Source of the DNA: a virus
Taxonomy: Duplodnaviria; Heunggongvirae; Uroviricota; Caudoviricetes; Demerecviridae
IMG/VR virus record: IMGVR_UViG_2757320985_000001
Reading direction: 5' to 3' (one strand)
DNA length: 49,291 nucleotides
A program made the position numbers and the translations under genes. Of the stretch, positions 1-49,291 are shown piece after piece; the first letter of the stretch is position 1; every line of letters starts with the position of its first letter. Under the pieces are notes generated by a model. It ran no database searches. It was not told the DNA's origin and saw only the letters and a list, made by a program, of their open reading frames with translations.

Positions 1-2004
1 GGTGTTTATATTGACTCTGATAGCATCACCGAAGTAGCTGTACATTATCTCCAGAAAATTCTGGATAGCAAGAATCATCAGATCGTTTTCCATAACTTGA
101 AGTTCGATATGCACTTTTATTCCTACCATCTAGGACTTTCCTTCGAGAAAGCACATAAAGAGCGTAGACTTCATGATACCATGTTACAACACTATGTTCT
201 TGATGAACGTCGTGGTACTCACGGCCTGAAATCTCTGGCTATGAAGTATACTGATATGGGCGATTACGACTTTGAACTGGATAAGTTTAAGGATGATTAT
301 TGCAAGGCACATAAGATCAAAAAAGAGGATTTCAGCTATGATCTAATTCCTTTCGATATTATGTGGCCATATGCTGCAAAAGATACCGATGCTACTCTGC
401 GTCTGCATAACTTCTTCTTACCGAAAATTGAGAAGAATGAAAAGCTTTGCAGTCTGTACTATGATGTTCTGATGCCTGGTTGTGTATTCCTGCAACGTGT
501 TGAAGATCGTGGTGTACCAATTTCTGTTGATCGCTTGAAAGAAGCTCAGTATCAGTTAACTCACAACCTGAACAAGGCTCGTGAGAAGCTGTATACTTAT
601 CCAGAAGTCGTTCAGCTAGAGAAAGATCAGAACGAAGCGTTTAACCCGAACTCTGTTAAGCAACTTCGTGTTCTTCTGTTTGATTATGTTGGTCTGACTC
701 CAACGGGTAAATTGACGGATACAGGTGCAGATTCTACAAACGCAGAAGCTCTGAACGAACTAGCAACTCAGCACCCGATTGCTAAAACTCTGCTAGAGAT
801 TCGTAAGCTGACTAAGCTGATCTCTACTTATGTTGAGAAGATTCTTCTGAGCATCGATGCAGATGGTTGCATTCGTACCGGCTTCCACGAACACATGACT
901 ACTTCTGGTCGTCTGAGTTCTTCTGGTAAGCTGAACCTGCAACAGTTACCACGTGATGAGTCTATTATCAAGGGTTGTGTAGTAGCTCCTCCTGGATACC
1001 GTGTAATCGCATGGGACTTAACAACTGCGGAAGTTTACTATGCTGCTGTTCTGTCTGGTGACAGAAATATGCAACAAGTATTTATCAACATGAAGAATGA
1101 GCCTGATAAATATCCTGACTTCCACTCAAACATCGCGCACATGGTATTTAAACTGACCTGTGAGCCACGTGATGTTAAGAAGCTGTTCCCAGCTCTGCGT
1201 CAGGCTGCTAAGGCAATTACCTTCGGTATTCTGTATGGTTCTGGCCCAGCGAAAGTAGCTCATTCTGTTAACGAAGCTCTTCTGGAACAGGCTGCTAAGA
1301 CAGGTGAACCGTTTGTTGAATGTACCGTTGCAGATGCGAAGGACTATATCGAAACTTACTTCGGTCAGTTCCCTCAGCTTAAGCGTTGGATTGATAAGTG
1401 CCACGATCAGATCAAGAACTTTGGATTCATCTATAGTCACTTTGGTCGTAAGCGTCGTCTGCACAACATCCATTCCGAAGATCGTGGTGTTCAGGGTGAA
1501 GAAATCCGTTCTGGATTTAACGCAATCATTCAGTCTGCATCTTCTGATAGCCTCCTGTTAGGTGCTATTGATGCTGATGAAGAAATCCTGTCCCTGGGTC
1601 TAGGAAAAGAGATGAAGATCGTCATGTTGGTTCACGACTCCGTGGTTGCTATTGTACGTGAAGATCTGATTGATCAGTATAACGAGATTCTGATTCGTAA
1701 CATCCAGAAGGATCGTGGTATTAGTATCCCTGGCTGCCCAATCGGTATTGATTCTGATTCTGAGAAAGGTGGTTCTCGTGACTACTCTTGTGGTAAGATG
1801 AAGAAACAGCACCCATCAATCGCTTGTATTGATGATGATGAATATACTCGTTATGTTAAGGGTGTATTACTCGATGCAGATTTCGAGTATAAGAAGTTAG
1901 CTACAATGGATAAAGAGCATCCAGACCACAGCAAGTACAAGGATGATAAGTTTATTGCTGTATGTAAAGATCTGGATAATGTGAAAAGGATTTTAGGTGC
2001 TTGA
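1..2004 (+). CDS. pol: DNA polymerase, family A (T5-type), 5' part lies outside the window
   Basis: Frame 1 is open from base 1 (GVYIDSDS...FHNLKFD). It has exonuclease motifs HNLKFD and YAAKDTD and PolA motifs TSGRLSS, DLTTAE, RQAAKAITFGILYG and LVHDS. Confidence 0.97.
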   Translation, partial: GVYIDSDSITEVAVHYLQKILDSKNHQIVFHNLKFDMHFYSYHLGLSFEKAHKERRLHDTMLQHYVLDERRGTHGLKSLAMKYTDMGDYDFELDKFKDDYCKAHKIKKEDFSYDLIPFDIMWPYAAKDTDATLRLHNFFLPKIEKNEKLCSLYYDVLMPGCVFLQRVEDRGVPISVDRLKEAQYQLTHNLNKAREKLYTYPEVVQLEKDQNEAFNPNSVKQLRVLLFDYVGLTPTGKLTDTGADSTNAEALNELATQHPIAKTLLEIRKLTKLISTYVEKILLSIDADGCIRTGFHEHMTTSGRLSSSGKLNLQQLPRDESIIKGCVVAPPGYRVIAWDLTTAEVYYAAVLSGDRNMQQVFINMKNEPDKYPDFHSNIAHMVFKLTCEPRDVKKLFPALRQAAKAITFGILYGSGPAKVAHSVNEALLEQAAKTGEPFVECTVADAKDYIETYFGQFPQLKRWIDKCHDQIKNFGFIYSHFGRKRRLHNIHSEDRGVQGEEIRSGFNAIIQSASSDSLLLGAIDADEEILSLGLGKEMKIVMLVHDSVVAIVREDLIDQYNEILIRNIQKDRGISIPGCPIGIDSDSEKGGSRDYSCGKMKKQHPSIACIDDDEYTRYVKGVLLDADFEYKKLATMDKEHPDHSKYKDDKFIAVCKDLDNVKRILGA

Positions 2005-2494
2005 TTTCAAATTGCCCGTATATGCTTTACGGGCATTTGTATCAATTGAGCAGGAAGGTGATTATTCCGTAATTACAACAAGATATAATAAATATGTGCT
2101 AGATAACAGGGAGTTGCCTGGCACATTCTCTAAACGTAGGTTAGCCTTATTTGAGAAGCGGAAAGAATTACCGTATAAGCTCTACCCTATTCGTGGTAGA
2201 ATATCAATGTTGTCCCAATTAGTTGGGTCAAAGCGTAGCCAGTTCATAGATTCTGATGGAAATCTTATTAACTGGAAGAAAACTACGTTCTATGATGTTA
2301 TCACATCTAAAGTTCTGCATTCTGCAAGAATTTATAATGGAAAGTATCAATGTTATGTGGCCAAAGTTCCATATCCATTCGTGCTATCCTATGTTCCAGC
2401 TTATATAAGCTATATTCTGGTAAATAATAGCCCTGTTATTTATCAAGTCCATCAAGAGGAGCCTGAAATTCCTAGACTTAGAATAAAATTATGA
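1997..2494 (+). CDS. Conserved T5-like hypothetical protein (165 aa) between pol and D10
   Basis: ORF overlaps the pol stop and the D10 start (translational coupling); position matches T5 gene order. Confidence 0.8.
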   Translation: MLDFKLPVYALRAFVSIEQEGDYSVITTRYNKYVLDNRELPGTFSKRRLALFEKRKELPYKLYPIRGRISMLSQLVGSKRSQFIDSDGNLINWKKTTFYDVITSKVLHSARIYNGKYQCYVAKVPYPFVLSYVPAYISYILVNNSPVIYQVHQEEPEIPRLRIKL

Positions 2495-3843
2495 AGGTTG
2501 TTATATCTAATAAAGCCTATTTCAAGCCCGATGATGAACTCTGGGATTATTGTAGTAAGCAAACCACTTATCACATTGAGACAATGACTAGTAAATACCC
2601 TATTATGTATAAGAATAGTGGTGTTGTTGCTAAAGAGATTAAGTGGATCCCCATTACGCGTCTGGATTTACTAGATGCTAAGGGAGTGAAATACGAATTA
2701 GTTGATAAACGCACGTTAGCTCCAGTAGAAATACCAGAACCTCAGTTCAAGCTACGTGAAGAAGATCAGCTTCCTATATATGAAGAGTGTGATGATACTT
2801 GTATTATTAATGGTAAGCCTGGATTTGGTAAAACTATCTTAGCGCTAGCTCTTGCATATAAGTTTGGCCAGAAAACTCTGGTAATCTGCACCAACACATC
2901 CATACGGGAAATGTGGGCTGCAGAAGTTCGTAAATGGTTTGGATTCGAGCCTGGTATTATAGGTTCTGGAAAGTATAATATTGACCCACCAATCGTGGTC
3001 AGTAATATACAAACCGTGAATAAACATGCGAATAATCTTTCTAAGGTGTTCGGTACTGTTATAGTTGATGAAGTTCACCACTGTGTAGCTACAACTTTCA
3101 CTAATTTCCTAGAGATCTCATGTGCTCGCTACAAGATCGGTCTATCAGGTACATTAAAACGTAAAGATGGGCTACAAGTTATGTTCAAAGATTTCTTTGG
3201 ATATAAGATCTTTAGTCCCCCTGTTAATAACACTGTTCCACCCACAATCCATAGGTACTCCGTACCTGTCGAGTTATCAGGAAACCAGAACGTACCATGG
3301 GCACTACGTGCTAATGATGTATATAATCATCCTGAATATCGGGAAACTATTATAAACCTAGCACATTTATATGTGTCTATTGGGCATAAGGTTCTCTTTG
3401 TAAGTGATAGGACGGAACTAATCCAAACAATATTAGAAGCTCTCGCACAACGTGGTGTTACAACCTATGAGATTATAGGTGCAACTCCTTTGGATGACCG
3501 ATTGAGAATCCAGAAAGATGTAGCGGAGGGCAGACCCTGTGTGCTTGCAGCAGCTCAGAGTATCTTCTCAGAAGGTATTTCTCTTAACGAGCTGTCTTGT
3601 TTAATAATGGGAAGTCTCATTAATAATGAATCTCTCATAGAACAGCTAGCAGGTCGCGTTCAACGTATTGTTGACGGAAAACTAGATCCGATCGTTGTAG
3701 ATTTAATTATGAAAGGAGGTACTGGTTTAAGACAGGCTTCTGGACGTATGGCCGTGTATCGCAATAACGCATGGAAAACTATTACTATGACTCCGGAGAA
3801 AGCAGTACAATTAGCTAAAATTGCATTTGGCAACTGCTCATAA
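2491..3843 (+). CDS. D10: SF2 DEAD/DEAH-like helicase D10
   Basis: Walker A GKPGFGKT, DEVH box, SGT motif III, QLAGRVQR motif VI; T5 synteny. Confidence 0.93.
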   Translation: MKVVISNKAYFKPDDELWDYCSKQTTYHIETMTSKYPIMYKNSGVVAKEIKWIPITRLDLLDAKGVKYELVDKRTLAPVEIPEPQFKLREEDQLPIYEECDDTCIINGKPGFGKTILALALAYKFGQKTLVICTNTSIREMWAAEVRKWFGFEPGIIGSGKYNIDPPIVVSNIQTVNKHANNLSKVFGTVIVDEVHHCVATTFTNFLEISCARYKIGLSGTLKRKDGLQVMFKDFFGYKIFSPPVNNTVPPTIHRYSVPVELSGNQNVPWALRANDVYNHPEYRETIINLAHLYVSIGHKVLFVSDRTELIQTILEALAQRGVTTYEIIGATPLDDRLRIQKDVAEGRPCVLAAAQSIFSEGISLNELSCLIMGSLINNESLIEQLAGRVQRIVDGKLDPIVVDLIMKGGTGLRQASGRMAVYRNNAWKTITMTPEKAVQLAKIAFGNCS

Positions 3844-3975
3844 TTATTGTATAATATATACATAAATTTGAGAGAAAGTTTCGGATTGATAAGAAAGTCC
3901 GAAGCAGAAAAATAAAAATTGTACTTGTCAAATCCTCCCGATTTAATGTATAATATATACATAAATTGATGAGAG
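3815..3975 (+). promoter_or_regulatory. Tandem sigma70 promoters of the T5 early (N25-like) type
   Basis: TTGGCA(3827)-17-TATAAT(3850) and TTGTCA(3925)-18-TATAAT(3949). Both are followed by the same ATATACATAAATT..GAGA initial region, and an A-rich UP-like tract precedes the second. Confidence 0.8.
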
Positions 3976-3981
3976 ACAAAA

Positions 3982-4344
3982 ATGAAATTCTTTGATTACG
4001 AGAGAATTTACCTCTTAGCTAGAGGTAACTCCGACCTGATTGTCAAGCTATTTAATAGAATGCTTGCAGAGCCTGATGCTCACCAACTACTGGTCGGTTC
4101 TTCATTCATCTTGAATGAATCAACTATTGTTGATAACCCTTACAAATTGTCTAATAGACAACTGGCAGAATATCTAGGAATTCTAAGTCTACGAAATTAT
4201 GCCGAATATAAGTTTACAAACGATCCGAGTTTGGACATGCAATATGTTCCCGTATGGATACCACGTTCTGTAATCGACACTAACCCACTAATTGCAATCA
4301 ATAAATCGAAGATAATCTTTAAAGAGGAAATAAAATATGGCTAA
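3982..4344 (+). CDS. Conserved T5-like hypothetical protein (120 aa)
   Basis: ORF directly after the promoters, overlapping the D11 start; T5 synteny. Confidence 0.8.
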   Translation: MKFFDYERIYLLARGNSDLIVKLFNRMLAEPDAHQLLVGSSFILNESTIVDNPYKLSNRQLAEYLGILSLRNYAEYKFTNDPSLDMQYVPVWIPRSVIDTNPLIAINKSKIIFKEEIKYG

Positions 4345-5110
4345 GTCTTGGGGCGAAACTACTGGCGGTTCTAACGATAAAATCGACTTCCTGAAATTCA
4401 ACAACGGTGTAACTCGTGTTCGTATCGTTTCTGGTGTTCTTCCACGTTATGTCTACTGGCTGACTAACAAAGATGGTAATGCAGCTCCGTTTGAGTGTCT
4501 GCGTTTCAACCGTACTAAAGAGAGCTTCGTTCGCGGTAAAGCTGACCCGATTCACGAAATGGGCTTCTTCGAGAAAGAGCTGGACAAAGATGGTAATCGT
4601 GTTCCGCTGAAACCGAAGAAAAACTACATTGCTTTCGTTATCGACCGTTCCGATAACAAACTGAAAGTTATGGAAGTTAAAGCTACTATCCTGAAAGGCA
4701 TCCAGTCTATCATGAAGCAGCTTGAACTGGCAGATCCATTCGATATCGATATTTCTATCGAGAAGAAAGGTAAAGGCTTCGATACTGAGTACGATGTACA
4801 GCAGATCGCAGCAATGCAGTTCCAGATGAAACTGAAAGATCCTACCAGTGCTGAGTCTAAACTGCACGCCGCTGATGTTGATATCCTCGGTGAAGCTATG
4901 TGTGATGATACTGGTGAGTTCATCAAGTTCGAAAAAGTTCCTTCTCTGGAAGAAACCTACCCGGTTCCGTCCTACGAAGAGCAGAAAGAAGCTATTCTCG
5001 CCTTCATGGAAGGTCGTGAGAAGCAAGACGGCGGTGACGCTAAGTCTGGTGGTGATGCTGGTTCTCAGAAAGGCATCGACGCTGAAGCTGCTAGCGATCT
5101 GGACGACTAA
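4337..5110 (+). CDS. D11: D11 protein, probable ssDNA-binding/recombination protein
   Basis: 257 aa with an acidic flexible C-terminus (…AASDLDD) typical of phage SSBs, strong codon bias, T5 position upstream of D12. Confidence 0.85.
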   Translation: MAKSWGETTGGSNDKIDFLKFNNGVTRVRIVSGVLPRYVYWLTNKDGNAAPFECLRFNRTKESFVRGKADPIHEMGFFEKELDKDGNRVPLKPKKNYIAFVIDRSDNKLKVMEVKATILKGIQSIMKQLELADPFDIDISIEKKGKGFDTEYDVQQIAAMQFQMKLKDPTSAESKLHAADVDILGEAMCDDTGEFIKFEKVPSLEETYPVPSYEEQKEAILAFMEGREKQDGGDAKSGGDAGSQKGIDAEAASDLDD

Positions 5111-5116
5111 TAAACC

Positions 5117-5144
5117 AAGGGGAGCTACGGCTCCCTTTCTTTTT
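5117..5144 (+). terminator. Rho-independent terminator after D11
   Basis: GGGAGC-TACG-GCTCCC stem followed by TTTCTTTTT. Confidence 0.8.
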
Positions 5145-5149
5145 AACTT

Positions 5150-6127
5150 ATGAGAATACTATTTAGTGCTGATCATCATATCAAATTAGGACAAGATAAA
5201 GTTCCAAAGGAATGGCAGAAGCGTCGCTTCCTGATGCTAGGAGAACGGTTAAATGACATATTCCATAATCATAACTGTGATCTGCATATTGCTGGTGGTG
5301 ATATTCTTGATGTTGCCGACCCATCGTCGGAAGAAATAGAACTTCTTGAACAGTTCATGTCAAGACTTGACCATTCAGGCAAGATCTTCACTGGGAACCA
5401 TGAAATGTTAACTAAAACTATTTCATGTCTGTATCATTATGCAGGAGTTATTAATAAAGTAACAAACGGAAATTGGGAAGTCATTACTAAACCATATCGT
5501 TCTCCTGAATTTGATATTATCCCTTATGATGAAATCCACAAACCAAAGTGGAAACCATCTGAGTCAAAACTATGTTTCACGCATGTTCGTGGTGAAATCC
5601 CTCCACATGTAAAACCAGAGATTGATCTAACGAGGTATAACTGTTATGACACTGTAATTGCTGGCGATTTACATTCTTATACTAATAGTCAAACTGTTGG
5701 TTCTACTAGACTTCTTTATCCAGGATCTCCATTAACTACATCGTTCCATAGAGAACGAACAAAAGGTACAAATGGTTGTTTTATCATTGATACCGACACA
5801 TTAAAAGTAGAATGGATTGAACTTGGTGACTTACCACAACTGATTCGTAAAACAATCGGAGTTGGTGAGGAAATGGAGCCTAGTGACTATGACCGTGTAA
5901 TTTATGAAGTCACTGGTGACGTCGTTCAGTTAAAGTCTATTAAAGATTCTGATCTCTTAGATAAAAAGATTAACCATCGAGTTACTAAAGATGCTAAGTT
6001 AAATCTTGTTGATCTTGATATGTTAGGCGAGCTTGAGCTTTACTTCCGTGAAGTTGAAAAGCTGTCTCAAGACGACATTGATAGAATCTTGGCTAGAGCT
6101 GCTAAATATGTCAAAGATTATAATTAA
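5150..6127 (+). CDS. D12: Recombination nuclease, SbcD/Mre11-like subunit D12
   Basis: Metallophosphoesterase motifs ADHH, GGD, GNHE, HVRG and GDLH. Confidence 0.92.
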   Translation: MRILFSADHHIKLGQDKVPKEWQKRRFLMLGERLNDIFHNHNCDLHIAGGDILDVADPSSEEIELLEQFMSRLDHSGKIFTGNHEMLTKTISCLYHYAGVINKVTNGNWEVITKPYRSPEFDIIPYDEIHKPKWKPSESKLCFTHVRGEIPPHVKPEIDLTRYNCYDTVIAGDLHSYTNSQTVGSTRLLYPGSPLTTSFHRERTKGTNGCFIIDTDTLKVEWIELGDLPQLIRKTIGVGEEMEPSDYDRVIYEVTGDVVQLKSIKDSDLLDKKINHRVTKDAKLNLVDLDMLGELELYFREVEKLSQDDIDRILARAAKYVKDYN

Positions 6128-7946
6128 GACACTAAAATTCAGCAACGTTATGTCTTACGGTAAGGATATCGTAATTCATTTCGATAAGAATCCAGTTACT
6201 CAGTTAATCGGAGGAAACGGTCTAGGGAAGTCCACTATTGCTACTGTTATTGAGGAATTGTTTTATAACAAGAACTCACGTGGTATCAAGAAGGACGCCC
6301 TATTCTCTTGGGGTTCTCCGAAGAAAGAGTATGATATGCATGCTTACTTCTCGAAAGATGAAGATGAGTATGAATTGCATAAAGTAGTTAAATCAACTGC
6401 TAAGGTTACACTGATTAAGAATGGAGAAGATATCAGTGGACACACAGCAACTCAAACGTACAAGATGATTGAAGAGATTATGGGTGGTGACTTCCAAACA
6501 TTCACTAAACTAATCTATCAATCTGTTGGTTCCAATCTAGACTTCCTCAAAGCAACTGATGCAACACGTAAAGCTTTTCTTGTTAATCTGTTCAATCAGG
6601 AACAGTATAAAGAGATGTCAGAAACTATTAAGGCTGATCGTAAAGAAGTGGCAAGTACGTTAAGTAACTTGCAAGGCCAGATGGCCGTAATTACGAAGAT
6701 CCTCAATGGAAAAGGTAATCTCGGAAGTTTACAGGAGCCAGTTGAAGTTCCAGAATTTGATGAAGAACCGTTAGCACAAGAACTTACTGAATCGAAAATT
6801 AAGGCGGCATTAGCCAAGTCACAAGAGGCTAATATTACTAAACTCCGTAATTTGGACAAAGCTGTACAAGTTGCCGAACAATCTTTCGAGCCTTTCAAAA
6901 ATTTCCCTGCGCCCACTGACCAATCTGAAGAGATCTCAAGTGTTACGCGTGACTTAACGATTGTTACCTCACGTGCGGGAGAAGTCAAGAAACGTTATCA
7001 GAAGTTTAAGCAAGAGGCTTCAAATACTGAATGTCCTACTTGTGGTACGCATCTTGATACAACTGCTGCTCAAAAAGCAATGGATATGGCTAGAACAGAA
7101 TATGATCCTCTGTTTAAAGAGAAACAATCTCTTGAAGCTACATTGGAGCAGTTGAAGAAAGAACAAGTCGAGTACACTGCATATACTAGAGCTAAGGATG
7201 CTTTGGATAAGGCAATAGCAGCTAGGGACGAGTTCAAAAATTCAATGAGTGATGCTTCTTTTGAAGAACTCAATGTGCAAATCCTACAGGTGCAAATCCG
7301 ACAATTAGAACAGGAAATCGCAGATGGACGTTCTAAAGTTGCAATTGCCAAAGAGCATAATGCAAATGTCGAATTAGCCAATGCAAAATATAAAGCGAAA
7401 CTAGAACAGATTGAAAAAGCTGAGGCAGAAATGTCTGAGATAACGTCCAAACTGGATGGAGTATCAGAAGCTGTTGCTGATCTTGATATTCTGATCGCTG
7501 CATTGAAAAATCTGGTAGGATATAAACTAGAGCATAGTGTGAAAGTATTTGAGGAATTGATTAATAAATATCTTTCTATTATGACTGGTGGTAAGTTCGC
7601 ACTTGGATTTGAACTTGATGAAACTAAATTACAAGTAGTAATCTTCAATGATGGAAACCGCACCAGTATGGAGAACTGCTCTACTGGTCAGCAGAGTAGA
7701 ATTAACCTAGCAACTCTGTTAGCTATTCGAATGCTGTTAACATCTATTAGTAAAGTTAATATTAATCTTCTGTTCCTTGACGAAGTTATTAGCTTTATTG
7801 ATACGAAAGGACTTGATACTCTCGTTGAATTATTAAATGAGGAAGATAGTCTGAATTCTATCATTGTTTCTCATGGGCATACGCATCCATTAGCCCATAA
7901 GATTACTGTCAAAAAAGATGCAGAAGGATTTTCCTACTTAGAATAA
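6108..7946 (+). CDS. D13: Recombination ATPase, SbcC/Rad50-like subunit D13 (612 aa; start corrected to ATG 6108)
   Basis: Walker A GGNGLGKST, coiled coils with a CPTC zinc hook, signature CSTGQ, Walker B LFLDE. Confidence 0.93.
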   Translation: MSKIIIKTLKFSNVMSYGKDIVIHFDKNPVTQLIGGNGLGKSTIATVIEELFYNKNSRGIKKDALFSWGSPKKEYDMHAYFSKDEDEYELHKVVKSTAKVTLIKNGEDISGHTATQTYKMIEEIMGGDFQTFTKLIYQSVGSNLDFLKATDATRKAFLVNLFNQEQYKEMSETIKADRKEVASTLSNLQGQMAVITKILNGKGNLGSLQEPVEVPEFDEEPLAQELTESKIKAALAKSQEANITKLRNLDKAVQVAEQSFEPFKNFPAPTDQSEEISSVTRDLTIVTSRAGEVKKRYQKFKQEASNTECPTCGTHLDTTAAQKAMDMARTEYDPLFKEKQSLEATLEQLKKEQVEYTAYTRAKDALDKAIAARDEFKNSMSDASFEELNVQILQVQIRQLEQEIADGRSKVAIAKEHNANVELANAKYKAKLEQIEKAEAEMSEITSKLDGVSEAVADLDILIAALKNLVGYKLEHSVKVFEELINKYLSIMTGGKFALGFELDETKLQVVIFNDGNRTSMENCSTGQQSRINLATLLAIRMLLTSISKVNINLLFLDEVISFIDTKGLDTLVELLNEEDSLNSIIVSHGHTHPLAHKITVKKDAEGFSYLE

Positions 7947-7949
7947 AAC

Positions 7950-8432
7950 ATGGCCGTAGATAGTAGAGAGAAAGGTAAACGTGGTGAATATCAGGTAAGA
8001 GATATACTACGTGAACGTACAGGTCTTGAGTGGGAACGTGTTCCAGGTTCTGGTGCTTTTGGCCAGAGCCATGGACTGAAGGGTGACATCTACCTTCCAC
8101 CACAAAGCGGACACATTAGTAAATACTGCTTCGAAGTTAAGTGGTATAAAGATGATAACATATCAAGTAATTTATTTAACGTTGGTGAATCCACTCTAGA
8201 GAAGTGGTGGCAGCAGTGTTCCCGTGAAGGTGAACAGATGAACTCCAAACCAGCCTTAATATTCAAGAAAGACAGAGGACAGTGGTTAATTGCTTTGGAT
8301 AGCTCAGACCCGATGGTCGACAACTTAATGAGTCGTACCCATATGGTGTTAAATAAGAAAGACATGGAAATCGTAATCGGGTTATTCGAACCGTGGTTAC
8401 ATCACGCATCTGTTGAGGACTTAATTAAATAA
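7950..8432 (+). CDS. D14: D14 protein, PD-(D/E)XK nuclease / Holliday-junction-resolvase-like
   Basis: KGKRGE...GD...EVK motif; T5 synteny. Confidence 0.85.
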   Translation: MAVDSREKGKRGEYQVRDILRERTGLEWERVPGSGAFGQSHGLKGDIYLPPQSGHISKYCFEVKWYKDDNISSNLFNVGESTLEKWWQQCSREGEQMNSKPALIFKKDRGQWLIALDSSDPMVDNLMSRTHMVLNKKDMEIVIGLFEPWLHHASVEDLIK

Positions 8433-9307
8433 TGAGTAAATCCTGGGGAAAATTTATTGAAGAGGAAGAAGCTGAGCTGGCTTCTCGTCGCAACCTAATG
8501 ATTGTTGATGGAACTAACTTAGGCTTCCGCTTCAAACATAATAATAGTAAGAAACCCTTCGCTTCAAGTTATGTTTCTACAATTCAATCTCTCGCAAAAT
8601 CCTACTCAGCTAGAACTACAATCGTTCTTGGTGATAAAGGAAAGTCTGTATTCCGTTTAGAGCACCTTCCTGATTATAAGGGCAACCGTGATGAAAAGTA
8701 TGCTCAACGTACAGAAGAAGAGAAAGCACTAGATGAACAGTTCTTCGAGTATCTTCGTGATGCTTTCGAGTTGTGTGAAACCACATTCCCAACTTTCACT
8801 ATTCGTGGTGTAGAAGCAGACGATATGGCAGCTTATATTGTTAAGCTCATTGGTCATTTATATGATCACGTTTGGCTGATCTCTACTGATGGTGACTGGG
8901 ATACTCTATTAACTGATCGAGTTTCTCGCTTCTCCTTCACCACACGTCGTGAGTACCATCTTCGTGATATGTATGAACATCATAACGTTGACGATGTAGA
9001 TCAGTTTATCTCTCTGAAAGCAATTATGGGAGATCTTGGTGATAACATCCGTGGTGTTGAAGGCATCGGTGCAAAACGTGGTTATAATATTATCCGAGAA
9101 TTTGGAAACGTTCTGGATATTATTGACCAACTTCCATTGCCTGGGAAACAGAAATATATACAGAATCTGAACGCATCGGAGGAGCTGCTTTTCCGAAATC
9201 TGATTCTGGTTGATTTACCGACTTACTGTGTAGATGCTATCGCTGCGGTTGGTCAAGACGTACTTGATAAGTTTACGAAAGATATTTTGGAGATTGCTGG
9301 ACAATGA
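8432..9307 (+). CDS. D15: 5' flap endonuclease / 5'-3' exonuclease D15
   Basis: 291 aa with IVDGTN, YKGNR, GVEADD, STDGD and GDLGDNIRGVEGIGAKR (H3TH) motifs, characteristic of T5 FEN. Confidence 0.96.
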   Translation: MSKSWGKFIEEEEAELASRRNLMIVDGTNLGFRFKHNNSKKPFASSYVSTIQSLAKSYSARTTIVLGDKGKSVFRLEHLPDYKGNRDEKYAQRTEEEKALDEQFFEYLRDAFELCETTFPTFTIRGVEADDMAAYIVKLIGHLYDHVWLISTDGDWDTLLTDRVSRFSFTTRREYHLRDMYEHHNVDDVDQFISLKAIMGDLGDNIRGVEGIGAKRGYNIIREFGNVLDIIDQLPLPGKQKYIQNLNASEELLFRNLILVDLPTYCVDAIAAVGQDVLDKFTKDILEIAGQ

Positions 9308-9750
9308 TTAAAATTAAACTAACTCACCCAGATTGCATGCCGAAGATTGGATCTGAAGATGCCGCAGGAATGGATCTGCGTGCGTTCTTTGGCACTAACC
9401 CAAGTGCAGATCTAAAGGCCATAGCACCAGGCAAATCCCTAATGATTGATACCGGTGTCGCGGTGGAAATTCCGCGAGGTTGGTTCGGTTTGGTAGTTCC
9501 TCGCAGCTCTTTAGGTAAGCGTCATCTGATGATTGCAAACACCGCAGGAGTGATCGACTCAGACTACCGTGGTACTATTAAGATGAACCTGTTTAACTAC
9601 GGTTCTGAAATTCAAACACTGGAAAATTTCGAGAGACTTTGCCAGCTAGTAGTAGTACCGCACTACTCGACACATCATTTTGAAATCGTTGACGAACTAG
9701 AGGAGACTGTACGTGGAGAAGGTGGATTTGGAAGCTCAGGAAGTAAATAA
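9304..9750 (+). CDS. dut: Trimeric dUTPase
   Basis: Motifs AAGMDL, PRSS, GVIDSDYRG, ERLCQ and RGEGGFGSSG. Confidence 0.97.
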   Translation: MIKIKLTHPDCMPKIGSEDAAGMDLRAFFGTNPSADLKAIAPGKSLMIDTGVAVEIPRGWFGLVVPRSSLGKRHLMIANTAGVIDSDYRGTIKMNLFNYGSEIQTLENFERLCQLVVVPHYSTHHFEIVDELEETVRGEGGFGSSGSK

Positions 9751-9982
9751 CTATAACTATTCAGATCCTAATATGGTGGGTAATTTTGAGCAGTCAAATA
9801 CTTATCATGTTGCAGTTGCTGAACCTAACCTGAATAATGTAGTTCTTAAAGTAGATCGTGAAGGTAATGTAATCCATTGGGATGAAGACGCTTTTGTCGA
9901 ACTGTGTAGTAAGTCTGAAGATCCTACACTCAGAGCTATGTTAGCAGTATTTAATTTAGGTGTTATTGCCGGAAGTAGATAA
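9713..9982 (+). CDS. Hypothetical protein (89 aa)
   Basis: GTG start with GAGGAG 7 nt upstream; overlaps the end of dut and ends just before the terminator. Confidence 0.55.
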   Translation: MEKVDLEAQEVNNYNYSDPNMVGNFEQSNTYHVAVAEPNLNNVVLKVDREGNVIHWDEDAFVELCSKSEDPTLRAMLAVFNLGVIAGSR

Positions 9983-36016: not shown

Positions 36017-37798
36017 TTAGGTTAGGCGTTGAACTGTTACACGTAGTCTTGGTAAGAAGATAGCAGCTGCTTCGGCAGCATGGATAATAACTCCTAATTC
36101 AACGTTACCATTACCAAGGTTTTTTACTGTATAAATATACCCATTTCTACGAAAAGCCATCTCATCAGGTCTACTAGCCCAAGTTTGTGTGTAACTATAG
36201 GAAGTTGTACTGTGATATGGTACTAGATAGCCAGGTGGTAGGGTAAGGATTTGGTGAAATATACCATCCCCCGCAGTGTAACTCTGTTGGCGTCTACCTT
36301 GTACACGCCAGGCCTGCCCACTGTATGTACTAACACGTTGTCCCGCAGTGTTAATGTTGCCCATAATAACTTCGGTAGTTAATATGATAGTAGAGTTGGT
36401 GTTAGGCAGTCCTAACCAGACTGTTGCTAAAGGCTGGTAGTAATCACCTGCTGCAGGATAAGATGGATTGAGGTCATCCCCAACATAAGTACTGACAACA
36501 TTGCTAGGGAATAACCTTAAAGGTACTGTACTAGGACTCCATACAGGTCCATGTTCATTACCAATGGAGTTAGTATTAGTATCTACATACCATTGTTTAC
36601 CTACACCAAATTTATAAAGGCTAATTTGGGAAGCTGCACCTCCATAGTTAATGGGTGACCACAATCCACCATTACTGGAGCCTATAAATTCACATCGTGC
36701 AGTATTATCACCAAAAACTCCAGTATATGCAGCATTATTACCAACATACTCCATATCAGGGCGATAGCCTAAGTTTCCAAAGGCATTCTGGTTAATGAAT
36801 TTATATCCTGTATTTGGTAAACTAACCCCTTTAATAGTAAAATTAGAGGGAGAAATAAGGATATCAGAACCAGTAAATGGATTACCAGAAACTCCCATAT
36901 TACCATTAGAATAGCGCAGATTTAGCACATACCAAATAACCTTAGTAGGAGTAACGTTATACCAGTCCTGTACATATACCTTTCTAGTGGCTTGCGCAGC
37001 TATATTAGTCGTAGAACCCCTACAAACATATACTTTAGTAGGAAAGGAAGGGGATTGGTAGTTAATGTTTACATTAGAAGGTATCTCCCCTTTTTTACCT
37101 ACAAATCCACGTATATTAGAGTTACATACATAAAAATGATCATGCCCTCTGCCAGCAGATCCAATAGGCGCCTGCCAGTTAGGATCCCAATAATCTGTAT
37201 TTGCTGCATCTAGTGGAGGTACTGAAACTCCTGAAGGAAACCCAATAAGAGCCCAGGCTCTGGCAATGGCTTCACCAGCAGAAACACCACCAGGTCTATA
37301 GATCTGGAAACCGGAAGACTGTAGTAAAGTACCTCCAGTTCCTTGCCGAGCAATAGATTCCTCATGACCAAGACTACCATTATACGTATAAGTACCATGA
37401 GCTAGACTATCACCGATTGCAAAAGCAGAAGTTAGAGCTAACTCAGCGCCAGCACGTGGTTGATCTTCAAAAAAGTTTAGCATCTGGCCAACCTGAGATT
37501 GTGTACCATTAAGGAAACCCCTATGAGTACCATTTATCTCAATAGCAGTTAATATAACTCTACCAGGATCATTGGATTTAATGTTTATAATATCCCAAGG
37601 CATCTGAGTAACAAAATACCCATTACCTGCATCACCTAGAGCAGCCTCGTAAGTCCCATCAACTAGGACAAATGGCATATCTGAGTGGAAGATACTATTA
37701 GTATTTGGAGAGTAGTGCTGATTTATATCACCACCATTAGCAGCGTTTAGAGATAATACAGTTTTACCATCACTAAATTTTCCTGCGAAAAAACTCAT
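36017..37798 (-). CDS. oad: Receptor-binding protein pb5 (593 aa)
   Basis: N-terminus MSFFAGK…IFHSDMP of the pb5 family; located between terS and llp. Confidence 0.9.
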
Positions 37799-39358: not shown

Positions 39359-39464
39359 CGCTAATTTGACTTTTGCCAAATCTCATAAGATTACACATGA
39401 AGGTGTGCCCAGAGGTTCCCTAGATGAGAATGAGTCTCATTACCGCCCCCTTACTTAGCAAGCT

Positions 39465-39510
39465 AATAGTCACACCATGTTATCATTACACAGTGTGACT
39501 ATTTTATTTT
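39465..39510. terminator. Hairpin between convergent transcription units
   Basis: AATAGTCACAC-17-GTGTGACTATT followed by TTATTTTT; lies just beyond the dmp stop. Confidence 0.6.
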
Positions 39511-44612: not shown

Positions 44613-45139
44613 GAAACGTAAAGACAAACGCCACCGCACCACGTCCAGCGGCGCACTAAATTTAATGAAACGGGCGCGCGAATAACACCAAAACAACCAT
44701 TTTAGCAAGTAATTTTTTCATTTATATCTGCTCTAGGGTACTTGACAAAATCTAAAATCCTCGTGGTGAGGTTTTCTCGGTGTACCCCTTATGATTGCCT
44801 ATCTTTTCCTTTGAGGCGCTTAGAATGCGTTACAGAGCGTTTTAGACCCTGTTAATAACTTATACAAAAAGCAAAAATGAAATTTAATGAGTTATCCACT
44901 TGATTTTTCAAAAAAGTATTTTCTGCTGTTATTTTTCATTGACAAATAAGTTTAGACGTGCATTGATTGGTTAGCATACTAACAATCGCTAGGATAATAA
45001 TCACGCTGGTGGATTGTAACAGCCGAAACAGTTAGCAGACTATTAATACTCTAAAAACCTATTAGCCAACTAACTATTTCATATTATATAATATACTTAT
45101 AAATTAAAGAGAAATAATAACTATAAGAAACTATCGGCT

Positions 45140-45333
45140 AAGTGAGAACCACTATCATTTAGGTTATTCACAAAGTTATCCACAGCACAAAATAACTTGA
45201 CGCAATAGGCGACGTTTTGGCGACTTATCCACAGACTTATTCACAGGTTATCCTACTGTATAAATATACAGGGTAGAATGGTAGCAGTAACAACTGCAAT
45301 CAATTTTAAGGCGTCTAGGAACGATTCTAAGCG
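45140..45333 (+). repeat. Module A: Fur-like box, four DnaA boxes, LexA box, flanking motif
   Basis: TTATNCACA at 45164, 45176, 45225 and 45237; CTGTATAAATATACAG at 45256-45271; inverted homologue at 48500-48693. Confidence 0.8.
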
Positions 45334-45521
45334 GTTTTCTCGCTGCTACCCTTATTATAATAAAGCCTTGTGTACGCTTACAGGGAGCTAGAAATAGAAA
45401 ACACGCGGTTATCATAAAAACAAGCGTTAGGCAAGGAATAAAAAAACCTTTTCTTTTTTCTTGCCTCTAGCGAACAATTATCTATATCATTCACTCACCG
45501 ATTAACGAGGGAGACAAAGAA

Positions 45522-46523
45522 ATGTCTACTGTAAGAATTGCAGTACCAGCAAACACCACTATTATTAAGGGTAGTTTGCGCAACCTGCTAGATGGTAGTA
45601 GTGCGGCAAGCGTACAACATACCGCTACTATTGTAGAAAAGATTCACGATGAAATTTTAGACAATAATGATACTCATTATTCAGTCGATGATTTCACGCT
45701 ATTACTAGACCAGACAAGGGCGCTAGTAATTTTCAACCGTGATTATCATATTTTCCGTAATAGTCGTGGAACTGATATTGATTTTATCATTGTTGGCTAT
45801 AGTGAGTCTCATAGTGGTTACATTGCGCGATTATATAACGTGCAAGAAAAGGAGCAGGTAACAGCAACAAAAGTAAATAATATCAGACTGGATAGTGTCG
45901 GATCGTTATTAAATAGTATCTGGCGTGAATTATCATCCAGTTATAAAGGCGCGGATAGTGACGCAATCGAAACAACTGGCGTATTGTGTTTTGAACGCGC
46001 TAGCGGTAACATGTTGATTCCTAACGATTATTTAGAGTATGGGAATGAATCAAACGTTGCAAACGCTGGATTTACACTTTTACCGCTTGACAATGTAACA
46101 AAACAGGCTGTACAATCTCAAACTTCAAGCGCAAATGCGCAAACTACTGAAAATAAAGGAAATATTATGTCTAAAGTATCTTCTATCGTTGCCGCTAATA
46201 AATCCGCCGTTGTTAACGCTGCTAAACTGGAAGCGGGTAAAATTGCACTGACTCAAATCACAAAAGTAGCGGCGAAAAAAGCGCCGTTTATGATTAAAGG
46301 TTATATTGATACGCCGATTGGTCGTGTAGTGATCGCTAACCTGCTGAGTGTAGCGGTTGACCAGTACGCCCCGACTAATGCGAAAGCGAAAGCGGTAGCA
46401 GGCGCGGCAATGGAAGCGGCAATGTTGGAAATGGTACAGAGTTTCAATATTGCGGAAATGATCGATGAAATGGTAAAAGGTATTGACATTTCTACTTTTA
46501 CCACTAACACCGAAACAGAATAA
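45522..46523 (+). CDS. Pre-early hypothetical protein (333 aa)
   Basis: GAGGGAG RBS; first gene of the rightward pre-early operon; probable promoter TTGCCT-18-TATCAT just upstream. Confidence 0.82.
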   Translation: MSTVRIAVPANTTIIKGSLRNLLDGSSAASVQHTATIVEKIHDEILDNNDTHYSVDDFTLLLDQTRALVIFNRDYHIFRNSRGTDIDFIIVGYSESHSGYIARLYNVQEKEQVTATKVNNIRLDSVGSLLNSIWRELSSSYKGADSDAIETTGVLCFERASGNMLIPNDYLEYGNESNVANAGFTLLPLDNVTKQAVQSQTSSANAQTTENKGNIMSKVSSIVAANKSAVVNAAKLEAGKIALTQITKVAAKKAPFMIKGYIDTPIGRVVIANLLSVAVDQYAPTNAKAKAVAGAAMEAAMLEMVQSFNIAEMIDEMVKGIDISTFTTNTETE

Positions 46524-46586
46524 TAACTACTAGCGGGGATTATTCCCCGCTTTACTATTTCCCTGTTAATTGTTAGGAGACTAATT

Positions 46587-47081
46587 ATGTCAGAAGAAAA
46601 ATATGGCTTTTCGCTAGAAAGTGTGAATGAAGCTAAACACGATATGATCGTTTTAGTTGATTGTCATACTGGCTATTGCGGGGAGGGCTGGACGGAGGAA
46701 CATTTTGTTCCCGCTGGCTGTGATCTGGACGCTTTCGCAAACGAACACGCATATGATAATGCTTCTCGTTTCGGTAGCGATGGGGAAGAAGATGAAGAAA
46801 CAGGGGAATGGATTGAAAATGATAATGTATATGCGAGTCTTTATCATTATCAATTGAGTAAGTCCGGTACTTATGTAAATGGCGGCGATCCTATTAATAC
46901 CGTTATGAAACTAATTATTAAACACGGTGGCGCGGAAATAATTGGTAACAAGGCGTTATTATATGCAAATCGATTAAAACAGCTTGTTTATATTCCTGAT
47001 AATTCCCGTTGGGATGAATATGCCGTTTTACAGAAAGAACTAAAACGCTGTTTCGGCGTGGAAGCATTAGAAATAGTCTAA
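46587..47081 (+). CDS. Pre-early hypothetical acidic protein (164 aa)
   Basis: AGGAG RBS. Confidence 0.8.
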   Translation: MSEEKYGFSLESVNEAKHDMIVLVDCHTGYCGEGWTEEHFVPAGCDLDAFANEHAYDNASRFGSDGEEDEETGEWIENDNVYASLYHYQLSKSGTYVNGGDPINTVMKLIIKHGGAEIIGNKALLYANRLKQLVYIPDNSRWDEYAVLQKELKRCFGVEALEIV

Positions 47082-47094
47082 TGTAAAGTTTTGT

Positions 47095-47131
47095 AAAGGT
47101 CGCCCTAATCGGCGACCTTTTTTGTTATAAT
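47095..47131 (+). terminator. Terminator overlapping an extended -10 element
   Basis: AAAGGTCGCC-CTAATC-GGCGACCTTTTTT immediately followed by TGTTATAAT. Confidence 0.72.
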
Positions 47132-47188
47132 GCCTTTACACCGAAACGGTGGATTGAAAATTTTCCCTGATTTCTAGGAGTTAAGCAA

Positions 47189-47401
47189 ATGTTAAAGAAT
47201 GTTTCCCTTGCCCGTTCTAAAGGTTTTAAGCTGGTGGATGTTAACACGTTTGAGCGTCCAGATTGTAAAATCGAATATGTAGCACGCAACAAAAACGCGT
47301 TTCGTGTTACTGAAAAGAAATTTGACAAGCGCGGAAATTTGGTAGCCGAAACGGTTAAACACTTTGCCACCTTTTACGCTGCTTTTCGTGGGGTATTATG
47401 A
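47189..47401 (+). CDS. Pre-early hypothetical protein (70 aa)
   Basis: AGGAG RBS. Confidence 0.78.
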   Translation: MLKNVSLARSKGFKLVDVNTFERPDCKIEYVARNKNAFRVTEKKFDKRGNLVAETVKHFATFYAAFRGVL

Positions 47402-47499
47402 GATCCTTATATATTGCTCTAGCGTTTGCTACCGTTGGCGTTGTTTGCTCATTCGCTGCATTTGTTTTAAAAATGTACCTGATATTTTCCCAGCTTTAG
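47398..47499 (+). CDS. Small hydrophobic peptide (33 aa, not in ORF track)
   Basis: MRSLYIALAFATVGVVCSFAAFVLKMYLIFSQL; ATGA overlap with the previous stop, fills the gap exactly. Confidence 0.6.
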   Translation: MRSLYIALAFATVGVVCSFAAFVLKMYLIFSQL

Positions 47500-47510
47500 G
47501 AGCTTGACAA

Positions 47511-47855
47511 ATGGTTATTTACGAGGGTAATCGTTTTGTTACTAATTGCCGTCCGGCATTATTAGCAAGCTATTTAAATCAGCTTTCACCAGTTTATAAA
47601 GGCGTGGTTAATATCTATGAGGGCAAATCACATTATAAGATTAATGCCGTTGTTGCTCGCGAGCTTGCCTTCCAGTTTCTTACTTTTGGCGCATGTGATG
47701 TACAGGTTATGGGTGAGCCATTAGTAGCAGAAAATGAAAATGAATTTATTGACATTTTCCGCAAAGTATGTACAGAGCGCCTGATTATGAAAGGCGCGTA
47801 TATTCAATCAACCGCTGAAAGTATTGAAACAGCGTTTCGGGGAATTGCGCAATGA
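47511..47855 (+). CDS. Pre-early hypothetical protein (114 aa)
   Basis: AGGAG RBS. Confidence 0.8.
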   Translation: MVIYEGNRFVTNCRPALLASYLNQLSPVYKGVVNIYEGKSHYKINAVVARELAFQFLTFGACDVQVMGEPLVAENENEFIDIFRKVCTERLIMKGAYIQSTAESIETAFRGIAQ

Positions 47856-48052
47856 CTAAAGATGAAGCGTTAGAAAAAATGAAACAAGGTTTCAAAGTTA
47901 GTAATCAATATTTTACTAGCGATGAATTTTTGTACATGAAAGAAAACGGCGTGATCATGTCGGAAGATGGTTACAATTTTAATGATTGGTTTTTCAATAT
48001 TCGCAAGGGTGAGGAATGGAAGCTAGACGGTTGGAGCGTCTACCGTGAATAG
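47852..48052 (+). CDS. Pre-early hypothetical protein (66 aa)
   Basis: ATGA-coupled to the previous gene. Confidence 0.75.
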   Translation: MTKDEALEKMKQGFKVSNQYFTSDEFLYMKENGVIMSEDGYNFNDWFFNIRKGEEWKLDGWSVYRE

Positions 48053-48175
48053 CTGGTGGCGAAAAACGCAAAGTCACAAATCTAATAATACCGCTGGGAA
48101 ACATTCCCAGCGTTTACGATTTGGGAACGGCTTCACAATGTTAATAATAATCATTCTCATTCTAGGAGCAATGGC

Positions 48176-48415
48176 ATGGCTGTAAGAATTTTACGATATG
48201 TAGAACGTAAAGAAACCGATATTATGCAGCATCATTTAACTGATGCGCAATATGCGCAATTTTTAGAAATGCAGAAAAGCGGAGCTAGTACGGCGGCGCT
48301 AGGGGCGTGGATCAATTCAGTTTCAACGTGTACGCATTTTGATTCATACGGGTATACACCAGCCGAAACCGTCCAGATCTTTGATGACTATGAGAAAGAA
48401 TACATAACAGACTAA
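48176..48415 (+). CDS. Pre-early hypothetical protein (79 aa)
   Basis: AGGAG RBS; followed by a terminator. Confidence 0.75.
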   Translation: MAVRILRYVERKETDIMQHHLTDAQYAQFLEMQKSGASTAALGAWINSVSTCTHFDSYGYTPAETVQIFDDYEKEYITD

Positions 48416-48421
48416 TAATAA

Positions 48422-48449
48422 CGGGGCGTAACTATCGGCCCCGCTTTTT
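48422..48449 (+). terminator. Terminator ending the rightward pre-early operon
   Basis: CGGGGC-N10-GCCCCG followed by CTTTTT. Confidence 0.65.
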
Positions 48450-48499
48450 CTGGCCTTCCTCAAATTTCCCCTTATTAAAGTACCTCCTCCAAAAATAAA

Positions 48500-48693
48500 C
48501 GCGTTAGAATGCGTTTGAGAGCGTTTTAGAGCTATATTAGAGTTATTCACTACGCAGGAATACTGTATAAATATACAGTAGAATAACCTGTTGATAAGTC
48601 TGTTGATAACGCCTCAAAATCGCTAGGATTTTGTCAAGTCAAATCGTGCTGTTAATAAACCTGTGGATAACTTAAATAACAGTGTTTCTCACT
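48500..48693 (-). repeat. Module B: inverted homologue of module A
   Basis: TACTGTATAAATATACAGTA at 48561-48580; DnaA-like boxes on the minus strand at 48589, 48601, 48650 and 48662. Confidence 0.8.
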
Positions 48694-48696
48694 TCC

Positions 48697-48840
48697 CTTT
48701 CTAAATGCAAATCATTCTCATTATGCGATTCATTCGTATTCCGGTAATCAAATGATAACCATTCTCATTCCGCTTTCTAAACGCAAATCATTCTCATTCA
48801 ACTTCTCAAATGCGAATCAATCTCATTATCATTCGCATTT
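48697..48840 (+). repeat. Array of Fur-box-like repeats
   Basis: TGCAAATCATTCTCA (48706), TGATAACCATTCTCA (48753), CGCAAATCATTCTCA (48782), TGCGAATCAATCTCA (48811). Confidence 0.7.
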
Positions 48841-48878
48841 CGGCAGGCAGGGCATTTTCATTTTTGCCCTGCGCTTTT

Positions 48879-49167
48879 GTGCAAATCCGACATTTGCCCC
48901 CACGGATTACGTGCCAGCGTGCATGTGCGAATCCGACAATTTTTGGTAGTGTGCAAATCCGATGGCAAATATTTTTTATATGTGCAAATCCGACCATGAA
49001 TTTTCCTAAAAACTCCAGCAATCCGCAACTGCGATGCAATCCAGCTGGATTTACTAGAGTATGTGCAAATCCGACAAGTGTTAAGGTGTGCGAATCCGAC
49101 AAGATTTTTGTGACTTCGATTGGAGGGTGTGTGATTGTGTGGGTTTGGGGAGAAGTGCGAATCCGAT
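48879..49167 (+). repeat. Seven direct copies of GTGCRAATCCGAY (presumed injection-stop region)
   Basis: Copies start at 48879, 48925, 48951, 48982, 49063, 49088 and 49155. Confidence 0.9.
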
Positions 49168-49291
49168 GAGATTTTGGGAGGAACTACGGAAGGAGCAGCG
49201 GTGATGGTGCTTTAGCACCGGTTTGCTGCGTTTTTGGGGATAATGTGGGATGTTTTGGCTAGAATTGAGATTAGTGGAGATAAAGCGAAAT

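Follow-up and report, generated by a model that had tools for sequence, protein, structure and literature searches.

Paired inverted DnaA-box arrays with LexA-type palindromes in the terminal repeat of a T5-like phage: candidate host-protein sites for the first-step injection pause

Why phage T5 stops injecting its DNA after about 8% of the genome is a question about sixty years old, and the repeats carried by the first-entering DNA are the leading cis-acting candidate for the stop. In this study, we ask what two inverted copies of such a repeat, module A and module B, may do in the Demerecviridae record IMGVR_UViG_2757320985_000001, of which the whole stretch of 49,291 nucleotides (nt), here called the window, was analysed. 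Many T5-like (Epseptimavirus-type) phages of Salmonella and Escherichia match the window at 93-97% identity. In one of these, EscoHU1 (95% identical), positions 1-9914 are annotated as the left terminal repeat and include the corresponding region; dmp, A1 and A2 are found to the left of it there, as they are to the left of the modules in the window. Judged by this homology, the region is the terminal repeat, that is, the first-step-transfer (FST) DNA, of a T5-like phage, and annotation together with homology bears out the claim of a first-pass annotation that the modules flank its rightward pre-early operon. Module B would lie ~650 nt before the end of the terminal repeat, as read from position in EscoHU1 only. 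By the same comparison, modules A and B are the published T5 pair IRC-spacer-IRD and IRD'-spacer-IRC': they are located in the terminal repeat, form an inverted pair of ~131 nt, contain eight paired boxes and are homologous to the copies of T5 itself, which align without gaps and are 88% identical for module B and 80% for module A.

These repeats have been described before. In a preprint of 2020 that cites work of 1987, 2005 and 2015, the first DnaA box report being that of 1987, Davison (10.1101/866236) presented two nearly identical, mutually inverted units, a 131-nt IRC-spacer-IRD (Repeat Region 2) and an IRD'-spacer-IRC' (Repeat Region 3), which are separated by a variable distance and together contain eight consensus or variant DnaA boxes per phage, paired with a 3-bp separation, in 25 T5-like phages. 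The FST shear point of T5 is placed just to the right of the counterpart of module B, and it was proposed that membrane-bound DnaA grips both repeats, possibly as a knot, and thereby stops injection (10.1101/866236). The repeats and the idea of anchoring, looping and an injection stop are therefore already known, and the interpretation offered by the first-pass annotation matches the preprint almost point for point. Our analysis adds two readings of the sequence that are absent from it, namely that 'palindrome D' is of LexA type and that the proximal copy would lie in the leader of the operon. The terms LexA, SOS and promoter do not occur in the text of the preprint, and a literature search, which did not reach Davison 2015 (PMC4743489), Wang 2005 and the 1987 paper, yielded no publication that connects LexA boxes with T5-like phages.

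We give a probability of about 0.5 to the reading that the modules are arrays of sites for host proteins, with DnaA as the likely ligand and LexA as a probable second one, which act in the pause after first-step transfer. From the sequence, geometry, conservation and confinement of the motifs, which are observations, we infer both ligands and a role of their binding as cause or stabiliser of the pause. In the process that we propose, the first-step DNA would enter, and host proteins already present in the cell (DnaA and probably LexA) would occupy both arrays; the resulting nucleoprotein complexes would hold the DNA at or near its entry point in the membrane, and would so form part of the injection stop signal.

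The architecture of the two copies was examined by repeat search, ungapped overlay and pattern search. The inverted repeat (45140-45271 and 48563-48694) consists of arms of 132 nt that are 75% complementary without gaps and lie 3291 nt apart. Its size had been put at ~190 bp; the repeat is real, but this figure was generous, since strong similarity is limited to the 132 nt and the following 73 nt are 41% identical. When the arms are overlaid without gaps, both carry boxes at offsets 25, 37, 86 and 98, CTTGAC at 57, CTGT-N8-ACAG at 117 and ATTCTAA at 185. The overlay confirms the 12/49/12 box spacing, the palindrome 19 nt from the last box and the CTTGAC within the 49-nt gap that had been reported for both modules; the TTAGAAT motif beyond the palindrome is also present in both, but at a distance of 53 nt instead of 33 nt. 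Strict TTATNCACA boxes occur in the whole window at 45164, 45176, 45225 and 45237 on the plus strand and at 48662 on the minus strand, so that all five are inside the arms, within 2 x 82 nt. One-mismatch boxes are found on the minus strand at 48650 (TTATTAACA) and at 48601 and 48589 (TTATCAACA). The pattern search agrees in this with the box positions and types reported earlier, with four strict boxes in module A as against one strict box and three position-6 variants in module B, and the window pair shows no difference in kind from the T5 pair.

The palindrome that closes each array is close to the 20-nt LexA consensus. Sites with three or fewer mismatches were found in the window only at 45254 (three mismatches) and 48561 (one mismatch), and none was found in 300 Markov shuffles of the window that served as the chance control. 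Its half-sites are conserved and its centre is variable, and CTGT-N8-ACAG is the LexA motif of most beta- and gamma-proteobacteria, Vibrio included (PMC3323433). We regard it as an even question whether each copy serves as an array of binding sites for proteins on double-stranded DNA, with a fixed geometry in which two box pairs with 3-nt gaps, about five helical turns apart, would be followed by a degenerate fifth box and, fused to it, a near-consensus LexA operator.

Some smaller motifs in and around the modules deserve mention. The 15-mer ahead of the first box, which had been called Fur-like, scores 11/14 in module A and 9/14 in module B against TGATAAT-N-ATTATCA, and at least 9/14 is reached at ~0.8% of window positions; the Fur-box reading was rejected because of the module B score of only 9/14. 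Better Fur-like sites (12-13/14 against the same pattern) are located outside the modules, at 48139-48159 (site 48145, before the last operon open reading frame, ORF) and at 48686-48830 (the AATCATTCTCATT repeats, site 48753). Tandem units of 10-11 nt, CTAAAACGC / TTCTAACGC, which contain the TTAGAAT motif, are present past the palindrome in both modules (45300-45335 and 48497-48535) and also at 44820-44846, and units of this type recur beside the palindromes of Vibrio phages (L041 ~9480-9515, L042 ~9900-9940). Far from the terminal repeat, at 36125-36140 and inside a minus-strand ORF of 593 amino acids (36017-37798), the 16 nt of TACTGTATAAATATAC repeat the left part of the module palindrome without a mismatch, which is unlikely to be a chance event.

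Modules A and B of one genome share their geometry because they are two copies of one ungapped repeat. The within-genome match, from which selection on spacing had been argued, is thus uninformative alone, and the case for selection therefore rests on conservation across phages. Here the argument holds. Both modules are present in 37/37 loci anchored on the A1 protein instead of the motifs (T5 and 36 others), with ~1.9-4.1 kb between them. The 57 distinct modules that were aligned show no internal gaps, and 59 distinct modules of Tequintavirus/Epseptimavirus-type phages keep the geometry, with 114 nt from the GTGAGAA anchor to the palindrome in all 59. Four boxes stand at identical offsets in 47 of these 59, and the remainder lost a box by substitution, not by insertion or deletion. 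Orthologous copies of different phages are mostly 80-98% identical, as against ~75% for A and B of one phage; therefore, the two copies are old, evolve separately and are both kept. The sequence of the gap between the box pairs differs between A and B.

Column by column, the 57 aligned modules show where change is accepted. Box positions 1, 2, 4, 8 and 9 are nearly invariant, position 5 is the most variable, and positions 6 (a C/A toggle) and 3 (an A/T toggle) rank second and third. Positions 5 and 3 vary as DnaA tolerates, and position 6 also varies, outside the strict consensus; the variation of the boxes can largely be read as tolerance of the consensus TT(A/T)TNCACA. In the palindrome, variation is almost confined to the central 2-4 nt, with an AAAT/ATTT flip, and elsewhere in the module the TTGAC in the gap is invariant and the AGTGAGAA-N-CACT block nearly so. 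The substitution pattern in boxes and palindrome largely fits DnaA- and LexA-type recognition.

More distant relatives show the same association. In Vibrio T5-like phages, whose A1 and A2 proteins have 32-35% and 32-44% amino-acid identity to those of the window, consensus TTATCCACA boxes adjoin a CTGTAT-N4-ATACAG palindrome. In pVp-1 and 70E34-1a, which represent the two genera with both sides readable, boxes and palindrome stand to the left and to the right of the second pre-early operon. No nucleotide stretch of the terminal repeat is better conserved between the enteric and the Vibrio phages than the 50-nt core, boxes 3 and 4 with the palindrome, which is 80-85% identical. The idea that 12/49/12 spacing extends across Demerecviridae holds for Tequintavirus/Epseptimavirus-type phages, but Vibrio phages differ: X1 has 51 nt in place of 49 and three boxes only, and pVp-1, Quinn and JSF12 have a 50-nt step and another layout, with one box and a second near-palindrome in the outer half. 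Complete genomes from five genera (T5, IME260, pVp-1, 70E34-1a and JSF12) were scanned for confinement of the motifs. All occurrences of CTGTAT-N4-ATACAG in these five genomes are in the module region and none is elsewhere, the reversed control pattern has no occurrence, and 20/23 occurrences of TTATCCACA are in the module region; the palindrome centres across genera are AAAT, ATTT, ATCC and GTTT. By these comparisons, DnaA boxes combined with a LexA-type operator rank first in conservation among the non-coding features of first-step DNA in the family, and they are confined to that DNA. A covariation test on hosts with a different LexA motif was impossible because all true T5-like relatives infect gamma-proteobacteria. 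The phages considered for it, RHEph08 and KASIA (alpha-proteobacteria, Shewanella), are not T5-like in layout and have A1 among replication genes, and the KASIA A1 region contains neither a DnaA-box cluster nor a LexA-type palindrome.

The modules can be compared with known systems on both sides of the array. With oriC, datA and DARS of Escherichia coli they share same-orientation 9-mers of the type TT(A/T)TNCACA, in a mix of strict and one-mismatch boxes. They differ from these loci in having 3-nt instead of 2-nt gaps and two boxes per run, and in their position on a phage fragment not yet able to replicate; in contrast to oriC, no unwinding element or origin function is known for them, an unwinding element not having been searched for. 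With the SOS (LexA) operators of recA, sulA and umuDC they share CTGT-N8-ACAG, an AT-rich centre, 1 and 3 mismatches and variation in the centre only, whereas the T5-type palindrome has no convincing overlapping promoter or evident regulated gene, occurs in a strictly lytic phage and is in every case joined to an array of DnaA boxes. Unrelated viral contigs of IMG/VR contain the same TTATCCACAG units, head-to-tail and in 11/12-nt phasing, but in longer runs (4-12 boxes) and with terminase or VapE-like neighbours instead of a pre-early operon. At the position of the degenerate fifth unit of module A these contigs have a true third box, and a pattern scan with the box 3-4 array found CTGT-N8-ACAG at the T5 offset in none of ~54 of them. 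On the sequences compared, 11/12-nt phasing is a common DnaA-array geometry, but only T5-like phages have the array fused to a LexA-type site. Strict arrays of 4-12 boxes in unrelated contigs were located at L053 11296-11342, L123 805-864, L106 2921-3187, L077 12324-12438 and L107 951-1043; their neighbours include the terminase large subunit, just upstream of which they lie (L106, L153), and a VapE-like primase/helicase (L077, L123).

Several points weigh against a role of DnaA and LexA in the pause. The low-affinity arrays of oriC have a 2-nt gap, in contrast to the 3-nt gap seen here, and half of the boxes have A at position 6, outside the strict consensus. CTGT or ACAG carries a substitution in 6/57 modules, and NBEco001 is without module A and has TTGT...ACAG instead of CTGT in its palindrome (L047 6990-7200, 9560-9810). 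With its distal module only, this phage is a natural variant and a possible control for the LexA idea. T5 itself is one box short (10.1101/866236). It is not obvious how proteins bound on the cytoplasmic side would halt DNA driven out of the capsid. The literature search found no binding or injection experiment on the repeats, and two papers of 2026 still call the stop mechanism unresolved. Finally, module A lies ~3.3 kb left of the stop, in the transcribed leader, a position that suits a transcriptional role equally well.

Such a role would make module A an operator or roadblock array in the initial transcribed region, while module B, in the opposite orientation, would insulate the operon from leftward read-through of neighbouring early genes. 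In T5 and other relatives, a TTAGCC...TATAAT site immediately precedes module A, and for T5 gene 011 an experimentally characterised upstream promoter is reported (10.64898/2026.04.02.716235). In the window, module A starts ~40 nt downstream of the -10 element of this conserved T5-type promoter; counted from the predicted transcription start, the distance is ~45 nt in the window and ~12 nt in T5. Module A is therefore transcribed ahead of the rest of the rightward operon. In the Vibrio phage pVp-1, a DnaA-box pair likewise comes immediately after a TTGACA-16-TACACT promoter. Early genes beside the terminal repeat are transcribed toward module B (EscoHU1 annotation, with the same layout in pVp-1) and the operon promoter points toward module A, so that polymerase meets the boxes first and the palindrome last at either module. 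DnaA bound to a box within a transcription unit blocks RNA polymerase, as in the asnC case. LexA operators are classical repressor sites (PMC3323433). However, if the array blocked the strong promoter of its own operon, the block would need to be lifted in the first minutes, and a control of this kind is not known; a terminator-like hairpin already stands ahead of module B, and in pVp-1 palindrome and boxes are arranged differently with respect to the gene. Nor is there a convincing promoter inside the modules: the best match is TTATCA-16-TATATT (9/12), matches overlapping the palindrome are likewise weak (9/12), and the invariant TTGAC has no usable -10 element at 16-18 nt. We consider transcription control unlikely. 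A function at the RNA level was also considered; folding of the modules as RNA revealed no notable structure (z-scores -0.8, -2.1 and -1.7, almost all from the palindrome hairpin), and it was rejected because the shared motifs keep their DNA orientation in copies that would be transcribed in opposite senses.

Phage proteins were also considered as ligands, in that the 12-nt units and the palindrome would be binding or cleavage sites for A2 with A1, used for transfer restart or for cutting or joining the terminal repeat, and the DnaA and LexA likeness would be incidental or competitive. A1 and A2 are required for second-step transfer, and cleavage at a nearby palindrome was proposed by Davison (10.1101/866236). 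A2 is present in every module-bearing phage and belongs to the 'DNA binding protein' phage family phrog_1725. Its structural model (predicted local distance difference test score, pLDDT, 88.9) has two three-helix bundles, the first of which resembles GcrA-/Myb-type DNA-binding domains (Z 6.4, root-mean-square deviation 2.3 over 49 residues), and tandem helix-turn-helix domains would suit tandem direct repeats. These structural matches are under the reliability level of the tool, and a Pfam search, a sequence search for solved relatives and a Foldseek search (E <= 0.001) all gave no match for A2; as a guide to specificity the fold was set aside, the best VIA-align match (GcrA DNA-binding domain, Z 6.4) being too weak to assign. 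The sites keep the sequence of the host consensus (TTATCCACA; CTGTAT-N4-ATACAG) in phages whose A2 has fallen to the low identities given above, although phage protein-site pairs usually drift together; host ligands are therefore favoured. In addition, the stop occurs without protein synthesis, so that phage proteins cannot set it up. We judge sites for A1 and A2 somewhat less likely still than transcription control. The clusters of consensus DnaA boxes could also be taken as DnaA-dependent replication origins or as a datA-like sink that titrates DnaA to halt host initiation, and the longer arrays of the same head-to-tail boxes in unrelated viral contigs stand in some cases beside VapE-like replication genes. 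The origins of T5 are near the genome centre and the replication genes are still outside the cell at the first step, on which grounds an origin role has been argued against (10.1101/866236), and eight sites per entering genome would be too few to titrate a protein with hundreds of chromosomal sites. An origin or a sink is very improbable. Among these explanations, binding of DnaA and probably LexA in the pause remains the one that we prefer.

Table 1. Features of the module region in the window (strand "." for palindromes).
Feature	Position	Strand	Basis or remark
Sigma-70 promoter-like site TAGCCA-18-TATAAT, T5 type, for the rightward operon	45063..45092	+	promoter scan, 10/12
Module A = IRC-spacer-IRD, Repeat Region 2 in T5 naming	45140..45271	+	repeat search, homology to T5-type loci, 10.1101/866236
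Conserved AGTGAGAA-N-CACT...ATTTA block ahead of box 1; includes the 'Fur-like' 15-mer 45143-45157	45141..45161	+	column entropies near 0, 57 modules
DnaA box pair 1-2: TTATTCACA, 3-nt gap, TTATCCACA	45164..45184	+	
CTTGAC in the 49-nt step of module A	45196..45201	+	
DnaA box pair 3-4: TTATCCACA, GAC, TTATTCACA	45225..45245	+	GAC linker nearly invariant
Fifth 12-nt unit TTATCCTAC, degenerate, continuous with the left palindrome arm	45249..45257	+	sequence reading, conserved columns
LexA-type palindrome of module A; core CTGT-N8-ACAG 45256-45271	45254..45273	.	3 mismatches to 20-nt consensus
ATTCTAA (other strand TTAGAAT), 53 nt past the palindrome of module A	45324..45330	+	
Rightward pre-early operon between the modules, six ORFs	45522..48415	+	ORF and domain annotation
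DUF7566 protein, ORF of the bracketed operon	45522-46523	+	
Homologue of T5.015 Ung-dependent nicking endonuclease, ORF of the bracketed operon	47189-47401	+	
Hairpin and T-run past the last ORF, terminator-like	48422..48449	+	sequence reading; 10-nt loop, hence unlisted by scan
TTAGAAT, module-B counterpart of 45324-45330	48504..48510	+	
LexA-type palindrome of module B	48561..48580	.	1 mismatch to TACTGTATATATATACAGTA
Module B = IRD'-spacer-IRC', Repeat Region 3, candidate injection stop signal	48563..48694	-	repeat search, homology, 10.1101/866236
One-mismatch DnaA box pair 4'-3': TTATCAACA twice	48589..48609	-	
CTTGAC of module B	48633..48638	-	
Box pair 2'-1': TTATTAACA and strict TTATCCACA	48650..48670	-	
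Fur-box-like AATCATTCTCATT repeats right of module B	48686-48862	+	DRC/DRD repeats of T5 Repeat Region 3; naming 10.1101/866236
Six or seven GTGCRAATCCGA repeats right of the AATCATTCTCATT repeats	48877-49174	+	DRC/DRD repeats of T5 Repeat Region 3

Beyond the features in Table 1, two observations concern the surroundings of the modules. A 66-amino-acid ORF of the bracketed operon (47852-48052) has a weak Pfam match to Tad2-like proteins (Thoeris anti-defence) with an E value of 0.005, which is under the curated cut-off. Just left of dmp and near the predicted start of the terminal repeat, ~50 nt at window position 39404-39467 are 80-84% identical to Vibrio T5-like phages (L039, L041, L043), and this stretch may be a conserved genome-end or packaging sequence.

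As the description of the repeats and the hypothesis of their function are already published, the finding opens no new question. The motif pair nevertheless points to two host genes, dnaA and lexA, and the proximal copy in the transcribed leader provides a competing reading that is equally testable. We put forward a wider proposal tentatively, and think it rather doubtful: the conserved unit may be a composite landing pad for DnaA and LexA across all Demerecviridae, from the phages of E. coli to those of Vibrio, in which LexA occupancy, falling in the SOS response, would together with DnaA set the pause or the expression of the operon. If this is true, a strictly lytic phage would read the replication and damage state of its host within the first minutes of infection.

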